A stretch of 36,907 bases of DNA, taken from Candidatus Woesearchaeota archaeon (GTDB lineage: Archaea > Nanobdellota > Nanobdellia > Pacearchaeales > GW2011-AR1). Both the position numbers and the translations under genes were made by a program. Of the stretch, positions 8,545 to 26,509 are shown one piece after another. Each line of letters opens with the position of its first letter. Positions within the stretch are counted from its first letter, which is position 1. The stretch is from positions 1 through 36,907 of the forward strand of contig CAYHMF010000001.1 of assembly GCA_964357655.1 (NCBI GenBank). Reading direction: 5' to 3'. Below the pieces are notes generated by a model that worked only from the letters and a program-made list of their open reading frames with translations, was not told where the DNA came from and did no database searches.

Positions 8545-10245
8545 ATGAAGATATTAAGTTTGCATACAGATTATATTAAGTTCAAGCCATTGAAAAAAGC
8601 GTTGAAGAAAATTGCGGATTTGCCTGAAAAGGAAATGGGAGTTGTTAAGATTGATGAGGCTTTGACAATTTTGACTGCTGTTGAAAAAAGTGACACAGAT
8701 ATTCAGGGAGTTGTTAATGCACTTGTCGAGAATGTGAAAGATATTGCTAAACAGGTCAATGCCAAAAATATAGTTTTGTATCCTTACGCGCATTTGTCGT
8801 CGAATTTGGCGAGTCCTGACGTCGCTATTGAGGTTTTGGAAAAATCAGAGAAGGCGCTGAAAAAATTTTTTAACGTCGTCAAAGCACCTTTTGGATATTA
8901 CAAAGAATTTGAAATGAAAGTTAAAGGGCATCCATTGAGTGAGTTGAGTCGAGAGATAAAAGTTGAAGGAAAACTTGGCGAAGAAAAATATGATCCTCAA
9001 CAATTGCTTAGAGAGATTTCAAAGTCTAAATTGGATACTTCTAAACTGAAAGAAAATGATCACAGAATTCTTGGACAGCAAATGGATTTGTATAGCTTTA
9101 ATGAAACTGCGCCAGGAATGGTTTTTTGGCACAATAATGGTCTGATAATCAAGAATGAATTAATTAATTTTTGGAGGGAGATGCACAGAAAGGCAGAATA
9201 CCAAGAAATTTCAACTCCACAAATTCTCGACGAGAAACTATGGAAAATTTCTGGGCATTGGGAAAAATACAAAGAGAATATTTTTTTGACTGATTATGAA
9301 AAAAGAAAATTCGCAGTTAAACCAATGAATTGTCCTGGAGGAATGTTAGTTTACAAAAACAAACCAAAAAGTTACAAAGAACTTCCGTTGAGAGTTGGAG
9401 AGTTAGGAATAGTTCACAGACAAGAACTTTCAGGAGTTTTGGGGGGATTATTCAGAGTAATACAATTCACTCAAGATGATGCTCACATATTCTGCACTGA
9501 AAAACAAATTGAAGATGAGATTGCTAATATTATTAATTTGGTTGATATCTTTTATAAAAAGTTTGATTTGCCTTACCATGTTGAATTTTCTACTCGCCCG
9601 GAGAAAAGGATTGGCTCGGATAAATTATGGAATAAGGCAGAGAAAATTCTCGAGCAGACTTTGAAAAAGAAAAAAATTGCGTTTAAAGTAAATAAAGGCG
9701 ACGGGGCTTTTTACGGGCCGAAAATTGATTTTCACGTCAAGGATTCTTTGGGACGAACATGGCAGTGCGGAACAGTTCAATTGGATTTTGCGATGCCAGA
9801 AAGGTTTAATTTAGAATATACTGAAAATGACAATAAAAGAAAAAGACCGGTGATGATTCATAGAACAATTTACGGAAGTCTTGAAAGATTCATCGGAATT
9901 TTAATTGAACATACGAGAGGAAGACTTCCCGTTTGGTTGGCTCCGACGCAGGTTAGAGTTTTGAGTTTTACTGACAGGAATGAAAATTATGCTAAAGAAA
10001 TTATTAAGAAACTTGGAGAGAAGATTCCTAATTTGAGAATCGACGCTGATTTTACGCAAACAACTGTTCCGTCGAAGGTGAAGGACGCAGAGATTATGAA
10101 AGTTCCGTATATAATTGTGGTTGGAGATAGGGAAGAAAAAGAAAGAACTTTGGCAGTTAGAAAAAAGGGCGACAATAAAATTGAAATGATTAAAGTTAAT
10201 GATTTTATTGAAAAATTGAAGAAAGAGATTGCGGAGAGGGATTAA
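8545..10245 (+). CDS. thrS: threonine--tRNA ligase, archaeal type with N-terminal editing domain
   Basis: The N-terminal 'MKILSLHTDYIKFKP...LYPYAHLSS' matches the archaeal ThrRS editing domain. Class II core: 'FWHNNG', 'RQELSG', 'FTQDDAHIF', 'GAFYGPKIDF'. C-terminal anticodon-binding domain present. Confidence 0.9.
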   Translation: MKILSLHTDYIKFKPLKKALKKIADLPEKEMGVVKIDEALTILTAVEKSDTDIQGVVNALVENVKDIAKQVNAKNIVLYPYAHLSSNLASPDVAIEVLEKSEKALKKFFNVVKAPFGYYKEFEMKVKGHPLSELSREIKVEGKLGEEKYDPQQLLREISKSKLDTSKLKENDHRILGQQMDLYSFNETAPGMVFWHNNGLIIKNELINFWREMHRKAEYQEISTPQILDEKLWKISGHWEKYKENIFLTDYEKRKFAVKPMNCPGGMLVYKNKPKSYKELPLRVGELGIVHRQELSGVLGGLFRVIQFTQDDAHIFCTEKQIEDEIANIINLVDIFYKKFDLPYHVEFSTRPEKRIGSDKLWNKAEKILEQTLKKKKIAFKVNKGDGAFYGPKIDFHVKDSLGRTWQCGTVQLDFAMPERFNLEYTENDNKRKRPVMIHRTIYGSLERFIGILIEHTRGRLPVWLAPTQVRVLSFTDRNENYAKEIIKKLGEKIPNLRIDADFTQTTVPSKVKDAEIMKVPYIIVVGDREEKERTLAVRKKGDNKIEMIKVNDFIEKLKKEIAERD

Positions 10246-13169
10246 TATTCTTTTCCATTAAGGAGTTTCTCATCCCATCCACCAAGTTTCCCTTTAATTT
10301 TTGATTTAGTCATTTTTACTCCAGGGGATTCAAAAATATCTATTGTGTTTGCTCCATTTTTTTCAAGAGCATAAAATGTTTTTTCCCCAAGCAAAACATA
10401 TTGCCATGTGCAATTCATTCTATCTTCAGATTTTAATTCATTAATTTTATCGCACCAATCACATGCAGACAATCTCTTCTTTAAAACATCTTCTTGATTT
10501 AAATCTCTTTCTGCTTTTGTTTCAACAACAAAAATTTTATTTCCTATTTTAACTAAAAAATCGGGAAAATAATGAGCCAACATTCCATCGCTTCTGACAT
10601 AAAGAATATTTGCAAAATTATAAGTATGCTCATTTATTTTCATAAAAGAGTTTACTTTTGAATCTGTATCGATGAAATTAATAAATGCTTTTTCAAACCC
10701 TCCTTTATTTGAAGGAAATCCAACTTTAGGATAAATAGTTTTTGCAACAATTAGGGCATAAGTTTCTCTAATTTTTATTTCATTAACTTCCGAAAACCAT
10801 TTTTTAATTATTGTTGCATCTAAAACCTTTAGTTTCTTTTGCAAATCATAAATTTCTTGGCTAATATTTTTTACAACATGTTTTATTAGTTTTCCTTCAG
10901 TCAATATTAAAATCTTCCAATTGTTATTTTCTAAAGGTTCGAAGTTTTTTCCGAAAAGTTTATGCCGAATATAATTATCAACTAATTTTGCAATTTTTGC
11001 TGAATTTATTTGCATAAGGGGAAATTCTTGAGATTTTCTTTTGTCTTCCAATTTTATTTGAACAGAAGAAACAGCATTAACAACTTTCTGAATAAATTGT
11101 TGATAACTCTTTGCAGTAAAAATATCTGCAGTTACAGAATAATCCCCAAATTTTGTTTTAACAGTTATTTCTTCCCCGTAGAAAACATCGCCTTCTTTTA
11201 CAATTGGCTTTAATTCTTCTAATTTTATTGGGTAAGGTTCCAAATTTTCCAAAGACATTTCTATATCTTCAAATTTTTCTTCTTTATCATGAATAATTAT
11301 TGGCCAAAATAAATCATATTCTTGGTAATTTTCTTTTAATTCAACTTTTATCAAATCTCCGACGATTCTCTCTTTTTTTGGCAATTCTTTAACTTTTCCA
11401 ACTGCATCCCCAAGTTCATTTTCATAGAACTCTACAAATGCGGGATGCTCAATTATGCTTAAAATATCCATGTAGTTAACAGGTTCTATTTTTTTGACTA
11501 ACAAATTAATTCTATTTTCTTCTTTTATTTCTTCATGTGCTTTCTCTCTCCACATTAACCTTAAACCTCTTCCAATCGTTTGCTCTAGAAGAATAAATGA
11601 AGTGCTAGAGCGAAGTGGAACAATTACACAAATGTTATTTACATCAAATCCTTCTCTTAACATTAAAACAGAGATTATTACTTTTGGATTTTTTGATTTA
11701 TCTAAATTAGATAGTTTTAATTTATCTTTTTCCAAAATATTCCCCAATTTTTTTGAATGAATTTCTACAATATCATTTTCACTTAATCCTTCTTGCCTTA
11801 AAAATTGGGTGACATAAGGAACAACAAAAGTATCTTCACACATAATTAACATCTTCGGATGTTTTTCTATATCGTATTCTTCAAATCCTTCAGCTAATCT
11901 TCTTAATTTTTCTAATCCTGCCCTCAACATTACTTTTTGTCCTTCCGACAATGATTGAATGCCTCTGCCTTTTTCTTCTCTTTCAGCTTTAAAATCCAAA
12001 GGCAAAGCAGTAATTTCTTTTCTTTTATCTATTGCAACGGTTTTTACTAAACCCAAATGAATTGCTGTTCTCAAATCAAAATTGATAATTATATGTGGGA
12101 AATAATGCCTTGTTCTTTTTTGTCCGCTTCCAGTAACTGAATAAGGTGTTGCAGAAAAATCAATTTGAACAAATTTTTCTTTTTTATTTTTTGAAATATC
12201 TGAAATTGCCTTTTGCCATTTTTTATCTAGCACTTCATCTCCTTTTTTCAATTCTCCTAAATGATGTGCTTCGTCGTTAAAAACAACTAAATCTTCTAAC
12301 CTAGATAAAAAGTCCAATTCTTTTCCTCTAAAGTAAGCATTATCTAATTCTTCCAATGAGTGTCCTGCTGAAGTCCCGGGGGTTAGGGGAAGAAGTTTTT
12401 TTATTATTTTTCTTGGGGAATCTAAAGCAGAATCTTCTTCTAATTCTTCTTCATCAATTAATAAATGCCAATTTGTTATTGCAATTAAACCTTCGCCAGT
12501 AACTTTTTTCCCAATTTCATCTTTTGAAGCAACTGAACTTTGGATAAAACCAAAAATTTCATCTTTGTATGGGGGCGGGCAAAATAACTCTTCAAATTTT
12601 TTAAAATCTGAAGTTTCAAAATCCCTTGTTTTTGCATCTTTCTTTTTTCCTAAATAAGCATCCAATAGTCTATCATAAACAATTAAACCTGGGGCGATTA
12701 ATAAAAAATTTTTTGAAAATCTTCCAGTTCGCTCTTCATCATATTTTGCATTTAAATACTGCCAAATTAATATTGCATGCATAACCCATGTTTTTCCTGT
12801 TCCTGTAGCCATTTTTATGCAATATTGAGGATGTTCATATTTTTCTTTTTCGTGAGAAATAATATTGATAAATTCTGCAAATAAATCTTTGTTTATTGTC
12901 ATGTATAAATCCTTAATATTTTTTGTTTTCAAAATTTCATGAACATAAATAGTATTTAAAATTGCTTGCCATTGCCCGTCGTGAAATTGAACACTTCTTT
13001 GGTCTCTCCAGCTTCCTTCTGGGGCCCAAAATCTCAACAAATCTTTTGTAATTGGAGAAACCTTTTGCAAAAATGTTCCATCTTCCCACTCTTTATTTGC
13101 CATTTCAGTAATTGCTTTTGCAAACCTTAAAGGCATTTCTCCTGTTCCAAGTGATTTTGCGTTTACCAT
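10242..13169 (-). CDS. res: Type III restriction enzyme Res subunit (SF2 helicase plus C-terminal PD-(D/E)xK nuclease)
   Basis: Motif I 'MATGTGKTW', motif II 'FNDEAHHLG', helicase C 'LREGFDV...TIGRGLR', and C-terminal 'FPDFLVKIGNKIFVVETKAE'. The stop codon overlaps the thrS stop (convergent genes). Confidence 0.85.
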   Translation of the reverse strand: MVNAKSLGTGEMPLRFAKAITEMANKEWEDGTFLQKVSPITKDLLRFWAPEGSWRDQRSVQFHDGQWQAILNTIYVHEILKTKNIKDLYMTINKDLFAEFINIISHEKEKYEHPQYCIKMATGTGKTWVMHAILIWQYLNAKYDEERTGRFSKNFLLIAPGLIVYDRLLDAYLGKKKDAKTRDFETSDFKKFEELFCPPPYKDEIFGFIQSSVASKDEIGKKVTGEGLIAITNWHLLIDEEELEEDSALDSPRKIIKKLLPLTPGTSAGHSLEELDNAYFRGKELDFLSRLEDLVVFNDEAHHLGELKKGDEVLDKKWQKAISDISKNKKEKFVQIDFSATPYSVTGSGQKRTRHYFPHIIINFDLRTAIHLGLVKTVAIDKRKEITALPLDFKAEREEKGRGIQSLSEGQKVMLRAGLEKLRRLAEGFEEYDIEKHPKMLIMCEDTFVVPYVTQFLRQEGLSENDIVEIHSKKLGNILEKDKLKLSNLDKSKNPKVIISVLMLREGFDVNNICVIVPLRSSTSFILLEQTIGRGLRLMWREKAHEEIKEENRINLLVKKIEPVNYMDILSIIEHPAFVEFYENELGDAVGKVKELPKKERIVGDLIKVELKENYQEYDLFWPIIIHDKEEKFEDIEMSLENLEPYPIKLEELKPIVKEGDVFYGEEITVKTKFGDYSVTADIFTAKSYQQFIQKVVNAVSSVQIKLEDKRKSQEFPLMQINSAKIAKLVDNYIRHKLFGKNFEPLENNNWKILILTEGKLIKHVVKNISQEIYDLQKKLKVLDATIIKKWFSEVNEIKIRETYALIVAKTIYPKVGFPSNKGGFEKAFINFIDTDSKVNSFMKINEHTYNFANILYVRSDGMLAHYFPDFLVKIGNKIFVVETKAERDLNQEDVLKKRLSACDWCDKINELKSEDRMNCTWQYVLLGEKTFYALEKNGANTIDIFESPGVKMTKSKIKGKLGGWDEKLLNGKEY

Positions 13170-13172
13170 GAT

Positions 13173-13895
13173 TTATTTTTTATTTTTCTCAAAATCCTCA
13201 ACGGACTTAATTTCAGATTTATTGATAAGGATTGATTTTAGTAGAGCATTTTCATCTTTTAATTTTTCTGGATTATAATCTATAATGTTTTTTATTTTTA
13301 CAATCTCAACGAAATCTTCTCCCGTTTTAACAATCTTACAGATTACTCTTTCCTTATCTTTCAAAACTATTGATTTGAATTTTAATTTTGTAAGAAGTTG
13401 TTCAAAATTTGCTGGAGTAACATTTAGCCCATAAATTACCGAGGCATAAGTTAATGTTAAAAAAGTAATAATTCCTGAAACAAGAGTAAATACAAGAGGT
13501 ATGTCAATAATAAAAATACAATAATTAATTAAGATAGAAGAGAACACTATTAAACAATTATTTGTATTGCTAATATTAAACATCGATTTCTCTTGAAATT
13601 TAAATAATAAAAATTGTAATAAAATAAGAAGTATCCCAACCAAATAAAATAAATTTCCATAACTTGAAAAAATTTCAGAAGAGATATGCCTAAGAATAAA
13701 GAAAAAAGTGAGATATGTTAATAAAAAAGGGATTATTACATGATTTGGAATAAACATTATTCCTTCCAAAACCTCTGAGGTCCAATCTCTGCATAATTCT
13801 TTTCTTGCTTTCAAAATATTTTTTCCAAAAAAAGTTATAGCTACCCCAACTAGAGTAATAATTACAGAAATATTAACAACACTTGAAAATTCCAT
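13173..13895 (-). CDS. polytopic membrane protein of unknown function embedded in the R-M operon
   Basis: 240 aa with about 5-6 hydrophobic segments and a soluble tail of about 85 aa. Its ATG overlaps the mod stop (TAATG). Its stop lies 3 nt before the res ATG. Confidence 0.65.
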   Translation of the reverse strand: MEFSSVVNISVIITLVGVAITFFGKNILKARKELCRDWTSEVLEGIMFIPNHVIIPFLLTYLTFFFILRHISSEIFSSYGNLFYLVGILLILLQFLLFKFQEKSMFNISNTNNCLIVFSSILINYCIFIIDIPLVFTLVSGIITFLTLTYASVIYGLNVTPANFEQLLTKLKFKSIVLKDKERVICKIVKTGEDFVEIVKIKNIIDYNPEKLKDENALLKSILINKSEIKSVEDFEKNKK

Positions 13896-15763
13896 TACTT
13901 CACCTCCTCCACAGCCACGCTTTCAAAACCAAAAACATCTACGGCTTTCACACAAATTTTTCTTTTTCCTTTTATTTTTGGCAGAGTTAGTTTTGCTTTT
14001 TTAATAACTCTAAATTCGTCGTTATCGTTTGCAGTATTTCCTCTATAGTCCTGCCACTTGCTCCTAAAAACTTCTCCGTCATAGTCAGGGTCAATACTCC
14101 AATATTCAATTAAACTTAATGGCTCTTTTTCAATTACTTGAGATAATTTTTCTTGGTTTTCTTTATCTAAAGGAAGAACATCTGGTGAGAGCAAAACATA
14201 ATCATCTAATTCAACAATTATTTCTTCTTGCTCTTTTCCATAGTCCTTTTTTATAATTGGTTTTATTTTTAAATATTGTAAAGAAGAAAATCTAATTTTC
14301 TTTGCTAAATCTTCTGTGCTTGCTTTTGACTTGAGCATATCTAAAAGATTTTGAGGGATAACTAAAACTTCTAATCTTTTGTCTTTCAATGAATCAATTA
14401 CTTTTCCAATATCAAAAACAAAATTCCATCCAAGAACAACAACTTTTTCCCAACCCCCCATAAACGAACCTCTTAACTCTTGTGCTTTCTTTAAAGTGTT
14501 GTATCCAGTCATCTTCGACGGAGAATCAACTAAAACCAAAGTTTTTGAAGATTTTATATAACCTAAATTTGCAGGAGCTTCTTCCTCTTTGAAAGGCAAG
14601 GCACCAAATAAATTTAAAACATTTTGAGACAAATCCCCGATAGTTTTAAATTCCGATTTTTCAAATTGTTCTTTTTGATAATCGCCAATCGACTGATATA
14701 AAAATGGTTTTGAATCCTGATCAATTAATCTTTTTCTCATAATCATGCAAGCTGGCTTTCCTAAATCAGACATAATCCATTTTCTTCCGAGCTTTTCCGC
14801 AACTGCTCCAGTTGTTCCTGAACCAGCGAAGAAATCTGCGACGATTCCGTTTTCAGGACAAGATGCGAGAATAATCCTATTCAATAATTTCTCGGGCTTC
14901 TGTGTTCCATAATCTAATTGTTCTTTTTGACCTTTTGAAAGATTAATTATATCTATCCAATTAGAACCTATAGCGAATTTTGCTTCATCAAGATAATATT
15001 TTTTATACTCTTTACCGCTTGAGGTAATATAAATAAGATTTTGTTTTCTAAAGTTCTCAATAGAATCTTGAGAATAATCTCCTAATTGAACTTTTTTAAA
15101 TTTTCTACCATCTGGTTCAGAATACATATATTCTCTTAATTGTGTTTGTGTAAGTTCTTCTCTATAAATTTGATTAAAATATGTTCCAGAAGATTTTCCA
15201 TAAAATAATAAAAAATCATTTTCTCTGGACCATTGTTTTGAAGTTCCTTTTGCTCCTTTTCCCGCAGAATCTCTTTGCCAAATTATTTCATTTCTAAAAT
15301 TCTCCTTCCCGAAAATCTCATCCATAATCACTTTAACATAATGTCCAACATGCCAATCAATATGAACATAAATTGAACCTTGCTCACTCAAAAGTTCTCT
15401 CATTAAAATTAATCTTGGAATCATCATCTGCAAATAAGAAGCTGTTCCGTCTTTCCATGTGTCTGAATATGCAAACTGCTCAATCACTGTTGGTTTTTGT
15501 TCAATATCTGTATTTGGAAGATGAATTTTTGTTCTATAATCTGCCTTGCTATCAAACGGAGGGTCAATATAAATTAAGTCTATTTTTCCACGCATAGAAG
15601 AAAGCCCAGTTTGTTTGTCTCCTGCTAAAAGAGCCTGCATTGCAAGTAAGTTATCTCCATAAACAAGACGATTAAACCAATCTCGGTTCTTTATTTCTTT
15701 AATTTGCCCTCTAAAAAGCCCACTCATAATCTTCTTTTCTTTTTTCAACTTTATTAATTTCAT
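13895..15763 (-). CDS. mod: Type III-like DNA methyltransferase Mod (beta-class N6A/N4C MTase)
   Basis: Motif IV 'IYIDPPFDS' lies upstream of motif I '[24 protein letters not shown]'. An alternative start, ATG at 15727 ('MSGLFRG'), is plausible. Confidence 0.85.
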
Positions 15764-16283
15764 TTGCCCTATTTAATCCTGCGTCGGTTAAATTACTCGA
15801 ACCCGAAATTATTCTACCTTCATCCCCAAAACCACCGCCTTTTGAAGTAAAAATATAGATTTTACCATGCATATCCTGATTAGGAGAAGCACGAATCTTT
15901 AGTTTTCCAGAAACTATCCAATCAATAAATTTCTTTGTTCCCTCTTCAACTTCAAAGGTATCTCTTGATTCTTCATATTCATGAACAATATTATTCTCTA
16001 TTTCTTTTTTTATTTCAGAAGTGGAATCTTTCAATTTTAATTGGCTTTCTTTTGCATGACTTAACATATCAAAAGTCTGTTTATTGGTACTTATTCCAAC
16101 CAAAACTTTTATTTCATTTACATTCTCTAAATCTTTGTATATTCTAAAAAATCCACTTGCATAAAAATAACCTACCAAACAACTAAATTCTTTTGTATTC
16201 TTAAGTAAGGTCTTAAAGTGATTTTCCAAGGTATCGTCGCCTTTGTTTGTAATAAATGTTGTATCTGCCATTTTACCTGCCAT
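15711..16283 (-). CDS. PLD/HKD-family nuclease-like protein
   Basis: 190 aa with HKD signature 'HGKIYIF...GSSNLT'. Its 3' end overlaps the mod 5' end. Confidence 0.75.
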
Positions 16284-16286
16284 TAA

Positions 16287-16330
16287 TTAGTGGCATTTAC
16301 ATTTTAAATCTTGCTATCTCTTAGTGGCAT
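16287..16330. promoter_or_regulatory. divergent promoter: central TATA-like ttttaaat (16302-16309) flanked by two exact direct repeats ttagtggcat (16287-16296, 16321-16330)
   Basis: The TATA lies about 19-20 nt from both divergent ATGs (16283 on the minus strand, 16329 on the plus strand). The repeat was seen directly in the sequence. Confidence 0.5.
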
Positions 16331-26369: not shown

Positions 26370-26509
26370 GCAAATTTCTTCGAAATTTTCATTAATCAAT
26401 TTTTCGCGAAAAAATTAATTAAACTCGGATTATCGCTTCGAGCGAAAAATCTTTTTGAATTTAACGTATTAGAATCTTGAGAATAAAATCCCCTCTTCGA
26501 TGGTATAAA

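Follow-up and report, generated by a model that had tools for sequence, protein, structure and literature searches.

Organization of the locus

The 36,907-nucleotide (nt) contig CAYHMF010000001.1 of a Candidatus Woesearchaeota archaeon (assembly GCA_964357655.1), hereafter the window, carries a restriction-modification (R-M) operon of the Type III kind in which a gene for a membrane protein lies between the modification gene, mod, and the restriction gene, res. The locus is formed by four minus-strand open reading frames (ORFs) that run in one direction and overlap or abut. The first is a phospholipase D (PLD)-type ORF (15711−16283, 190 amino acids (aa)) that corresponds to the HKD domain encoded at the start of an HKD-SNF2 helicase-type gene. 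It is followed by mod (13895−15763, 622 aa as the longest ORF), which encodes a 5'-truncated beta-class N6/N4 DNA methyltransferase; by the embedded cassette gene (13173−13895), which encodes a 240-aa membrane protein of what we call family A; and by res (10242−13169, 975 aa), which encodes a Type III-like restriction subunit.

A preliminary description of the window had read these four genes as translationally coupled, and the overlaps and gaps are indeed present in the sequence. The PLD ORF terminates 53 nt within the longest mod ORF, the mod stop codon and the cassette ATG have one base in common (TAATG, 13897−13893 on the minus strand), and the cassette stop TAA at 13175−13173 is placed 3 nt ahead of the res ATG at 13169. 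The short upstream region (16284−16310, minus strand) contains a TATA-like element, TTTAAAAT, at 16308−16301, about 20 nt ahead of the PLD ATG, and we infer that this region is the promoter now driving the whole gene string. A scan with promoter and terminator models gave counts at or below shuffled expectation; these models are bacterial and the host is archaeal.

The archaeal origin of the window, which has a GC content of about 30%, is evident from the adjoining thrS gene, whose product has an archaea-specific editing domain. The mod-res operon is the neighbour of thrS in a small island of defence and toxin genes. With res on the minus strand and thrS on the plus strand, the two genes converge, and their 3' ends overlap by 4 nt at 10242−10245; this leaves no space for a terminator that would separate the defence operon from the essential gene.

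A divergent Type III-like mod-res pair

Res combines an N-terminal superfamily 2 (SF2) helicase (motifs MATGTGKT, DEAH and QTIGRGLR) with a C-terminal PD-(D/E)xK nuclease motif (PDF...VETK). The nuclease motif had been proposed from the window by itself, and its residues D870, E883 and K885 (in 'YPDF...VETK') are invariant in three Res orthologues in our Res alignment, A4. In Pfam, Res matches ResIII above the cut-off (3.5e-14) and Helicase_C just under it (1.1e-4; 22.9 bits, with a gathering cut-off of 23.5 bits), and its PADLOC match is REase_III (1.6e-23). Its NCBIfam matches are a partial one to BPTD_3080 (220 bits, cut-off 800) and one to PRK15483 (31 bits, cut-off 564), and it has no sequence match in the PDB. 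Mod matches N6_N4_Mtase in Pfam (8.5e-41) and MTase_III in PADLOC (5e-70), with motif IV (DPPF) ahead of motif I (FAGSGTT). Together with a PLDc_2 match in the PLD ORF, these are the Pfam domains that had been expected of the locus, with Helicase_C at the borderline. The Mod of a relative, L011, has the Mod of EcoP15I as its best PDB match (4ZCF, 4.9e-18).

Judged by these motifs and matches, mod and res are shown to be a divergent Type III-like R-M pair of a DPANN-type archaeon. We use the label Type III-like, and regard Res as a divergent family, because Res scores far below the NCBIfam equivalog cut-offs. With the classical Type III systems (EcoP15I and EcoP1I, mod then res) the pair shares the beta-class Mod with its motif order, the EcoP15I Mod as the closest solved structure, and the arrangement of helicase and nuclease in Res, and in most relatives of the window mod and res overlap or abut as well. 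It differs from them in the strong divergence of Res, in the extra gene between mod and res, and in a Mod that has lost its N-terminal ~50 residues. Annotation tools label the locus as plain 'Type III'.

Full-length Res orthologues, 63−88% identical to that of the window, occur in DPANN metagenome-assembled genomes and in metagenomes. There was no match to Res in the viral contigs of IMG/VR and none to the 240-aa protein among GenBank phages and PLSDB plasmids; nothing in these searches thus suggests that viruses or plasmids carry the module.

The mod-res junction is a hypervariable cassette slot

The comparison of related loci rests on retrieval through Res alignment A4, which yielded 17 genome loci and 51 metagenome loci; the counts that follow describe Res neighbourhoods. 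The genome loci belong to Woesearchaeota, Pacearchaeota, Iainarchaeota, Micrarchaeota, Aenigmarchaeota, Altiarchaeales, Thermoplasmata and a few bacteria. Both sides of the mod-res junction were visible in 63 cases. In 43 of these mod abuts res, with gaps of −47 to +11 nt, which is the classical two-gene layout that the 240-aa gene interrupts in the window. The other 20 junctions contain one inserted gene of 88−283 aa, located exactly at the junction. Three partial loci likewise show inserts: in L007 a mod gene 91% identical to that of the window is followed by a family-A gene and the contig stops before res, L010 has two inserts in the order mod-B-A-res, and L022 reads mod-D-res. In L031 a family-B gene is directly upstream of res, and mod lies beyond the fragment.

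The inserted genes belong to at least eight unrelated families, mostly of small membrane proteins. Family A occupies the junction in five distinct loci, namely the window, L007, the group L008/L009/L013/L040 (mod, a family-A protein of 212 aa, res), L010 and L020 (mod, a family-A protein of 227 aa, res). The 240-aa protein is hence no ORFan, and has the syntenic homologues that the preliminary description had asked about. Family B (L011/L073, L030, L033 and L010, and beside res in L031) consists of polytopic proteins made almost entirely of transmembrane (TM) segments; family C (L012, L034, L026 and L061) has one TM helix and a helical domain; and family D (L059, L066 and L022) is soluble and AIG2/GGACT-like. 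A RusA-like insert is found in L043, and three singletons in L032 (283 aa), L064 (88 aa, 2 TM segments) and L072 (124 aa, 3 TM segments). None of the insert families matched a PADLOC model, and families B and C and the singletons had no useful Pfam match. By the same crude hydropathy test, membrane proteins make up 5−6 of the 8 insert families as compared with 31% of neighbouring small ORFs (P ~0.01−0.06).

The position of the inserts is precise to within a few nucleotides. The 3' end of mod, encoding '...GAGGTGAAGTAATG', is conserved across about 60 loci, and the ATG of the insert falls at the mod stop codon or within a few nt of it, usually as TAATG and otherwise as TAAATG or TAAAATG. The insert then stops 0−4 nt ahead of the res ATG in most loci, and in insert-free relatives the res ATG itself stands at the position equivalent to TAATG or a few nt from it. 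Comparison of the window with L011 and L030 makes the boundaries visible at the nucleotide level: identity of 85−88% extends to position 13887, 8 nt beyond the mod stop, and resumes at 13175, 6 nt before the res start, with none in between.

On a simple neighbour-joining tree of Res the inserts are scattered, and families A, B and C each appear on several distant branches. The clade to which the window's Res belongs (82−88% identical) harbours four different insert families. The Res proteins of L008/L013, L010 and L020 are 63−70% identical to that of the window, and the family-A proteins of these loci are 31−53% identical to one another. In bacterial plasmid relatives (Res ~43% identical) mod abuts res.

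At the level of gene order and nucleotide identity, these results show that the stretch between the mod stop and the res start is a hypervariable cassette slot in this R-M family. Because the inserts are scattered on the Res tree and the identity boundaries at the slot are sharp, the inserts have apparently come, gone and been exchanged between lineages, for which homologous recombination via the conserved 3' flank of mod and 5' flank of res is the simplest route. The recurrence of the same families indicates, as far as such comparisons can tell, that they have long resided in the slot.

Structure and homologues of the 240-aa protein

The 240-aa protein had no match in Pfam, PADLOC or NCBIfam, and a word-indexed homologue search returned only the protein itself. 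An exhaustive phmmer search of 1.84 billion representatives recovered 16 homologues of 161−234 aa with 25−46% identity. Two regions are conserved in the family (alignment A1): the first TM segment with the basic loop that follows it, 'YFGxxILKSRKExxKDxTSE', and a C-terminal stretch, 'KIxRLGDxFID...INKSxIxSI'.

An AlphaFold2 model built on a 17-sequence alignment (mean predicted local distance difference test score, pLDDT, 76) has five long helices (residues 3−30, 38−72, 78−104, 113−129 and 134−158) followed by a small five-stranded barrel. The five helices are predicted to be consistent with TM segments, and a crude Kyte-Doolittle hydropathy scan gives four non-overlapping hydrophobic peaks. 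Of the 5−6 TM segments anticipated earlier, the polytopic character stands, with five helices in the model, and the count is not borne out by the four peaks of the scan. Because basic loops follow TM1 and TM3 (the positive-inside rule), the protein would have an N-out, C-in topology, and its barrel would probably be cytoplasmic.

In Foldseek searches of the PDB and BFVD the barrel alone found matches, none of them significant by E value. In the PDB these were a designed SH3 protein and Hfq/Sm proteins (E 0.03−0.1, TM-score 0.6−0.73), and in BFVD small uncharacterised viral barrels. The TM bundle gave no informative match in the PDB or BFVD. A weak SH3-like hint also came from the family-A profile against the PDB (E = 0.28), and a few family-A members have weak Pfam matches to the RimP SH3 domain, DUF903 and Hfq_1.

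A predicted cytoplasmic barrel of this kind, an SH3/Sm-like fold that often binds nucleic acids or peptides, brings up a role as membrane anchor or adaptor, in which the inserted membrane proteins would tether Mod-Res through the barrel and thereby restrict DNA at its point of entry. The translational coupling of the cassette gene between two subunit genes and the over-representation of membrane proteins among the inserts agree with such a role. Against it stand the two-thirds of orthologous systems that have no insert, and the nearest relatives (Res 82−88% identical), whose inserts are unrelated to family A and in some cases, as in family B, have no soluble domain. Some inserts (AIG2-like, RusA-like) are, moreover, fully soluble, and no interaction surface is common to the families.

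Family A occurs outside R-M operons

More distant family-A genes are also found away from mod and res. The genomic contexts described here cover all but seven of the 16 representatives (P0126, P0128, P0129, P0131, P0134, P0135 and P0137). In L084 a family-A gene is immediately preceded by a Type I HsdS gene (PADLOC 4.7e-30) and one for a 101-aa TM protein. In L086 it closes a Cas1-containing operon that has no CRISPR array, and in L029 it stands by itself, its island also encoding a BrxH/DrmD-like SNF2 helicase, a DinG-like helicase and an integrase. Overall, 8 of the 11 distinct family-A contexts are defence-related or mobile.

The remaining contexts are of another kind. Family-A genes lie between the PorA-type and PorB-type genes of pyruvate:ferredoxin oxidoreductase (L028:1957−2649), directly after a PheS-like gene (L083:5071−5760), and between genes for an FAD/NAD-binding protein and an alpha/beta hydrolase (L081:2616−3320), in each case with overlapping start and stop codons. 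One small membrane-protein family is thus repeatedly seen at tightly coupled junctions of unrelated operons.

These neighbourhoods show, as far as gene content can, that family A is autonomous and its product no obligate subunit of Mod/Res: two-thirds of the orthologues have an empty slot, the occupants in the nearest relatives are unrelated, and homologues exist without R-M genes. Nor is the membrane protein a constant component of some new four-gene system, given that about two-thirds of the orthologous operons have nothing in the slot. For the anchor role the contexts cut both ways: a position between other enzyme-subunit genes (PorA and PorB) can be read as that of a general anchoring adaptor, and the occurrence of family A with no R-M genes nearby speaks against a tether for Mod-Res. 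Taken with the soluble and barrel-free inserts, we consider this role improbable.

The same contexts bear on the proposal that the inserts are neutral or selfish hitchhikers, that is, lineage-specific genes unrelated to restriction that settle at a permissive, well-expressed junction and spread by way of its conserved flanks. The heterogeneity of the inserts, which include AIG2/GGACT-like and RusA-like proteins, would fit such genes well, as would the sharp recombination boundaries and the presence of family A wedged into housekeeping operons; DPANN genomes also pack most genes tightly, so that coupling by itself says little. Several features are harder to reconcile with passive residence. Families A, B and C recur in the slot across distant Res lineages, which implies long retention, and the divergent members of these families are only 24−53% identical (66% in the closest pair, L012/L034). 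Start/stop coupling is exactly kept in every case, which suggests selection on co-expression, and most family-A contexts are, as counted above, defence-related or mobile. We therefore regard hitchhiking as a serious alternative for these genes, albeit a rather unlikely one.

The PLD ORF is a stump left by a deletion

The PLD ORF had been described as a stand-alone nuclease gene that would supply the system with a second nuclease beside Res. Its Pfam matches are PLDc_2 and RE_NgoFVII, and the motif 'HGKIYIF...GSSNLT' lies inside that match. The best PADLOC matches, however, are to the N-termini of PbeA, 'HKD+Snf2' (C3a139) and PLD_Helicase, and the best NCBIfam match is to the N-terminus of the 895-aa phospholipD_antiphage model, NF042964; the PADLOC and NCBIfam families are PLD-helicase fusions far longer than the ORF, which aligns only with their first ~170 residues. 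Among 14 aligned homologues the uncurtailed proteins run on beyond the window's stop codon, through '...DYxFAxxxFxxLW...TPYELYLKFL...' (also read as '...LNYFNELW...TPYELYLKFL...'), into the SNF2 motif I 'DVVGLGKT'. The homologue P0003, which is 80% identical, reads EDYEWALNYFNELW where the window reads 'EDYEWAF*', and homology to the PLD family stops at '...EDYEWA'. The SNF2 part that should follow PLD residue 190 is absent from the window, and mod starts there instead.

Mod is damaged at the same point. A segment of about 50 residues, 'SLIEELPKI..GKKEAQKILDGLS..ITLQTNE.VLP.K', starts Mod in all 10 aligned orthologues and is missing from the Mod of the window; tblastn of the whole window found it nowhere. 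Homology to Mod begins abruptly at nt 15724 in tblastn, and in blastn 77−90% identity to the mod genes of relatives begins at 15733−15717. These breakpoints, together with the sequence read directly, place a deletion junction at 15716−15733 (minus strand) with the microhomology AAGATtATGaGTGGGCT. Here the PLD codons GAAGATTATGAGTGGGCT face the mod codons AAAGATAATGCTGGGCT of the relatives with a 1-nt offset, which puts the two genes out of frame. The junction connects HKD-SNF2 codon ~189 to mod codon ~50, and the first 13 codons of the longest mod ORF are PLD gene sequence in another frame. The 240-aa and res ORFs are intact.

No homologue of the PLD ORF was found in 72 related mod-res loci, even at a hidden Markov model (HMM) E value of up to 1. 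Its closest homologues (64−80% identical) are in unrelated neighbourhoods with no R-M genes nearby. As compared in nucleotide and protein alignments, these data show the PLD ORF to be a 5' stump, left from a neighbouring HKD-SNF2 helicase gene that stood outside the R-M module, and show that one microhomology-mediated deletion, present in the assembled contig, took the helicase part together with the intergenic region and the ~50 conserved codons at the start of mod. The simplest history would place the HKD-SNF2 defence gene upstream of mod on the same strand before the deletion. Compared with the known HKD-SNF2 and PLD-helicase proteins (PbeA, 'HKD+Snf2' C3a139, PLD_Helicase, NF042964), the window keeps the N-terminal HKD domain, as the first ~189 residues, and has the whole helicase part deleted. 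Neither the stand-alone status of the gene nor its place as second nuclease of the system can thus be upheld: the ORF is a decayed fragment of a former fusion, whose homologues continue into the SNF2 helicase, and the curtailed gene has no counterpart in the related loci.

We also considered a programmed-frameshift PLD-Mod fusion and rejected it: no relative has such a fusion, and the Mod N-terminus is missing and not displaced.

Truncation of this gene is seen elsewhere. The PLD homologues of L002−L006 end at differing internal points; that of L001 reaches the contig end, with 181 of 184 comparable residues aligned. Among those 80% identical to the PLD ORF, one is curtailed to 148 aa, ending in 'HDKICCS*' (L002:5794−6240), and another to 108 aa (L006:10001−10327). 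The ratio of nonsynonymous to synonymous substitution rates (dN/dS) of the PLD domain against its homologues is about 0.1, which points to purifying selection over most of its history; the truncations are therefore recent. Judging from these differing end points, the HKD-SNF2 gene is decaying independently in several archaeal lineages despite its low dN/dS.

These observations decide against reading the four genes as one defence system, with a stand-alone HKD nuclease, Mod, the membrane protein and Res acting together by a logic like that of DISARM. Such a reading could draw on the overlapping or abutting ORFs on one strand and on the intact HKD catalytic motif, with which, given the low dN/dS, the stump may retain some nuclease activity. 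It fails to account for a PLD ORF that stops at a deletion scar and whose homologues are HKD-SNF2 fusions, for the loss at the same point of a segment universally conserved in Mod, for the lack of the PLD gene in all 72 related loci, and for closest PLD homologues that are themselves truncated and nowhere near R-M genes. We consider it highly improbable.

The resemblance to DISARM consists of a helicase, a methylase and a PLD domain in one neighbourhood. A PADLOC search with the four proteins gave no match to DrmA, DrmB or DUF1998, as had been noted beforehand for DUF1998 and the other DISARM components; the DISARM-like analogy drawn at the same time does not hold. The match of the PLD ORF to DrmC (E = 0.007, 14 bits) is far weaker than those to the PbeA and HKD+Snf2 N-termini. 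DISARM was rejected on the grounds that neither DrmA nor DrmB is present and that the adjacency of the PLD ORF is an accident of deletion.

Neighbouring genes

Divergent from the PLD stump are two small ORFs, one encoding a winged-helix protein of 78 aa (16311−16547) and one a 95-aa protein with no Pfam match (16602−16889). Homologues of these ORFs (43−54% identity) adjoin family A in L086:5962−6195 and L083:5856−6041, and others are beside mod or res (L030:2−238, L041:6995−7183). They may recur in these islands as a small regulator or a toxin-antitoxin partner, or their presence may be a coincidence. Beyond the PLD stump the toxin and defence island extends over 16891−18423. It includes a 105-aa ORF that looks RelE/ParE toxin-like by eye and has no Pfam match, a Fic/DOC protein (17291−17872, Pfam 3e-15) and a GNAT acetyltransferase whose gene a stop or frameshift has divided into two ORFs (17857−18201 and 18205−18423).

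Further along the window, Rfam identifies a tRNA of 127 nt (27262−27388, minus strand, 50.7 bits) that is not reported by ARAGORN and, as often in archaea, probably has an intron; a normal tRNA-Glu(TTC) is found at 26509−26583. The sole Pfam match of a 1417-aa ORF (27478−31731) is to an S59 autopeptidase domain of the Nup98/96 type, unusual in an archaeon, and is borderline, with a score slightly under the gathering threshold (E 2.4e-6). The ORF may encode a large protein, secreted or at the surface, that has an autoproteolytic domain.

Some of the related loci have additional genes around mod and res. A Cas4/RecB-like PD-(D/E)xK protein is encoded directly after res in L020:5504−6022 and L021:10921−11667, where we read an N-terminal CPxCF(W/Y)L cysteine motif in both. 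Pfam reports PDDEXK_1 in L020 and also in L001, in which the gene (L001:4314−4961) is immediately upstream of the PLD homologue. This protein may be another accessory gene of these defence neighbourhoods. In L087 (Sphingobium plasmid pMI3) a large gene for a TrlF-family AAA-like ATPase follows res directly (7970−10777), and a hypothetical gene of similar size is found about 185 nt downstream of res in L088 (8111−10741), which hints at a three-gene variant in bacteria.

Discussion

Our results reveal a Type III-like R-M family, centred on DPANN archaea, in which a single junction between mod and res serves as an exchange site for small genes. The explanation that we favour has several parts: the junction is a cassette slot, its occupant in the window is an autonomous family-A gene, the PLD ORF is a stump created by deletion, and the cassette may encode a defence function at the membrane. 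Taken as a whole we hold this account to be somewhat probable. In the window the promoter, start region and translation of the stump would now feed the truncated mod, the cassette and res.

The last part of this explanation draws on analogy. Genes embedded within defence operons have been described for Hma, BREX, DISARM and Type I R-M systems, with PrrC in EcoprrI as an example, and the study of such 'guilt by embedding' covered these four only (Payne et al., bioRxiv 10.1101/2024.01.29.577857). As in those operons, a variable accessory gene is here nested in a multi-gene restriction operon and would be co-transferred and co-expressed with it, and family A recurs within defence operons (in five mod-res loci, and after hsdS in L084). 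The host operon, by contrast, is of Type III and not Type I, it belongs to DPANN archaea, the insertions target one precise junction, and the occupants are mostly small membrane proteins and not ABC-ATPase or nuclease effectors. By the analogy, the cassette could be a second line of defence that is embedded in the operon and works at the membrane, whether as an effector of the abortive-infection or exclusion type or as a backup for when the R-M system is blocked. It would be co-expressed and co-transferred with the R-M genes in the way that PrrC is in the Type I system EcoprrI. We put this forward as a tentative proposal, which we find attractive and yet short of probable.

Small membrane-bound exclusion and abortive-infection proteins, and the membrane-anchored systems Zorya and Kiwa, are fast-evolving, diverse in family and linked to defence loci. 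The inserts resemble them in being small, family-diverse membrane proteins beside defence genes, and differ in that no similarity of sequence or fold to them was found; the barrel of family A gives the weak SH3/Sm-like matches described above.

Several observations weigh against the defence interpretation. No known domain ties any of the insert families to defence, and none of them matches a PADLOC model. The enrichment of membrane proteins among the inserts is only modest when set against a crude background, and the TM predictions for family A come from hydropathy and from one AlphaFold2 model with a pLDDT of 76. Three of the 11 family-A contexts are housekeeping operons, which fit a non-defence role equally well. 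The truncation of Mod, in addition, may have killed this copy of the system, which would make co-expression in the window irrelevant.

A more specific version of the proposal is that the slot is dedicated to the exchange of membrane effectors that are licensed or guarded by the R-M enzyme, much as EcoprrI guards PrrC, to form a two-layer module. In this scenario a virus that blocks or overloads Mod-Res would release the co-translated membrane protein, which would then depolarise the cell or block the entry of DNA. This guarded arrangement, drawn by analogy, strikes us as unlikely. Should it nevertheless exist, such a two-layer module would join restriction to abortive infection at the membrane, its effectors being interchangeable. 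It would be without precedent among Type III systems and in DPANN archaea, and would name at least five new membrane effector families.

Type III R-M systems are regarded as units of two genes and no more. In the literature we found no account of genes embedded in Type III operons or of membrane proteins linked to them, in line with the preliminary remark that no described Type III system was known to have a polytopic membrane protein between mod and res. What is already known is the type of the R-M system and the principle of embedding; what is new is the Type III slot, its precision, the archaeal setting and the membrane-protein occupants. The overlap of the PLD ORF with mod, on the other hand, is a deletion scar, a caution that adjacency by itself is a poor basis for proposing a new multi-gene system.

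Defence genes embedded in Type I R-M, BREX, DISARM and Hma operons have been a productive source of new immune systems. In one widespread, DPANN-centred Type III family the mod-res junction holds at least eight unrelated small gene families, and families A, B and C among them are concrete, testable candidates in archaea whose defence repertoire has been reported as poor.

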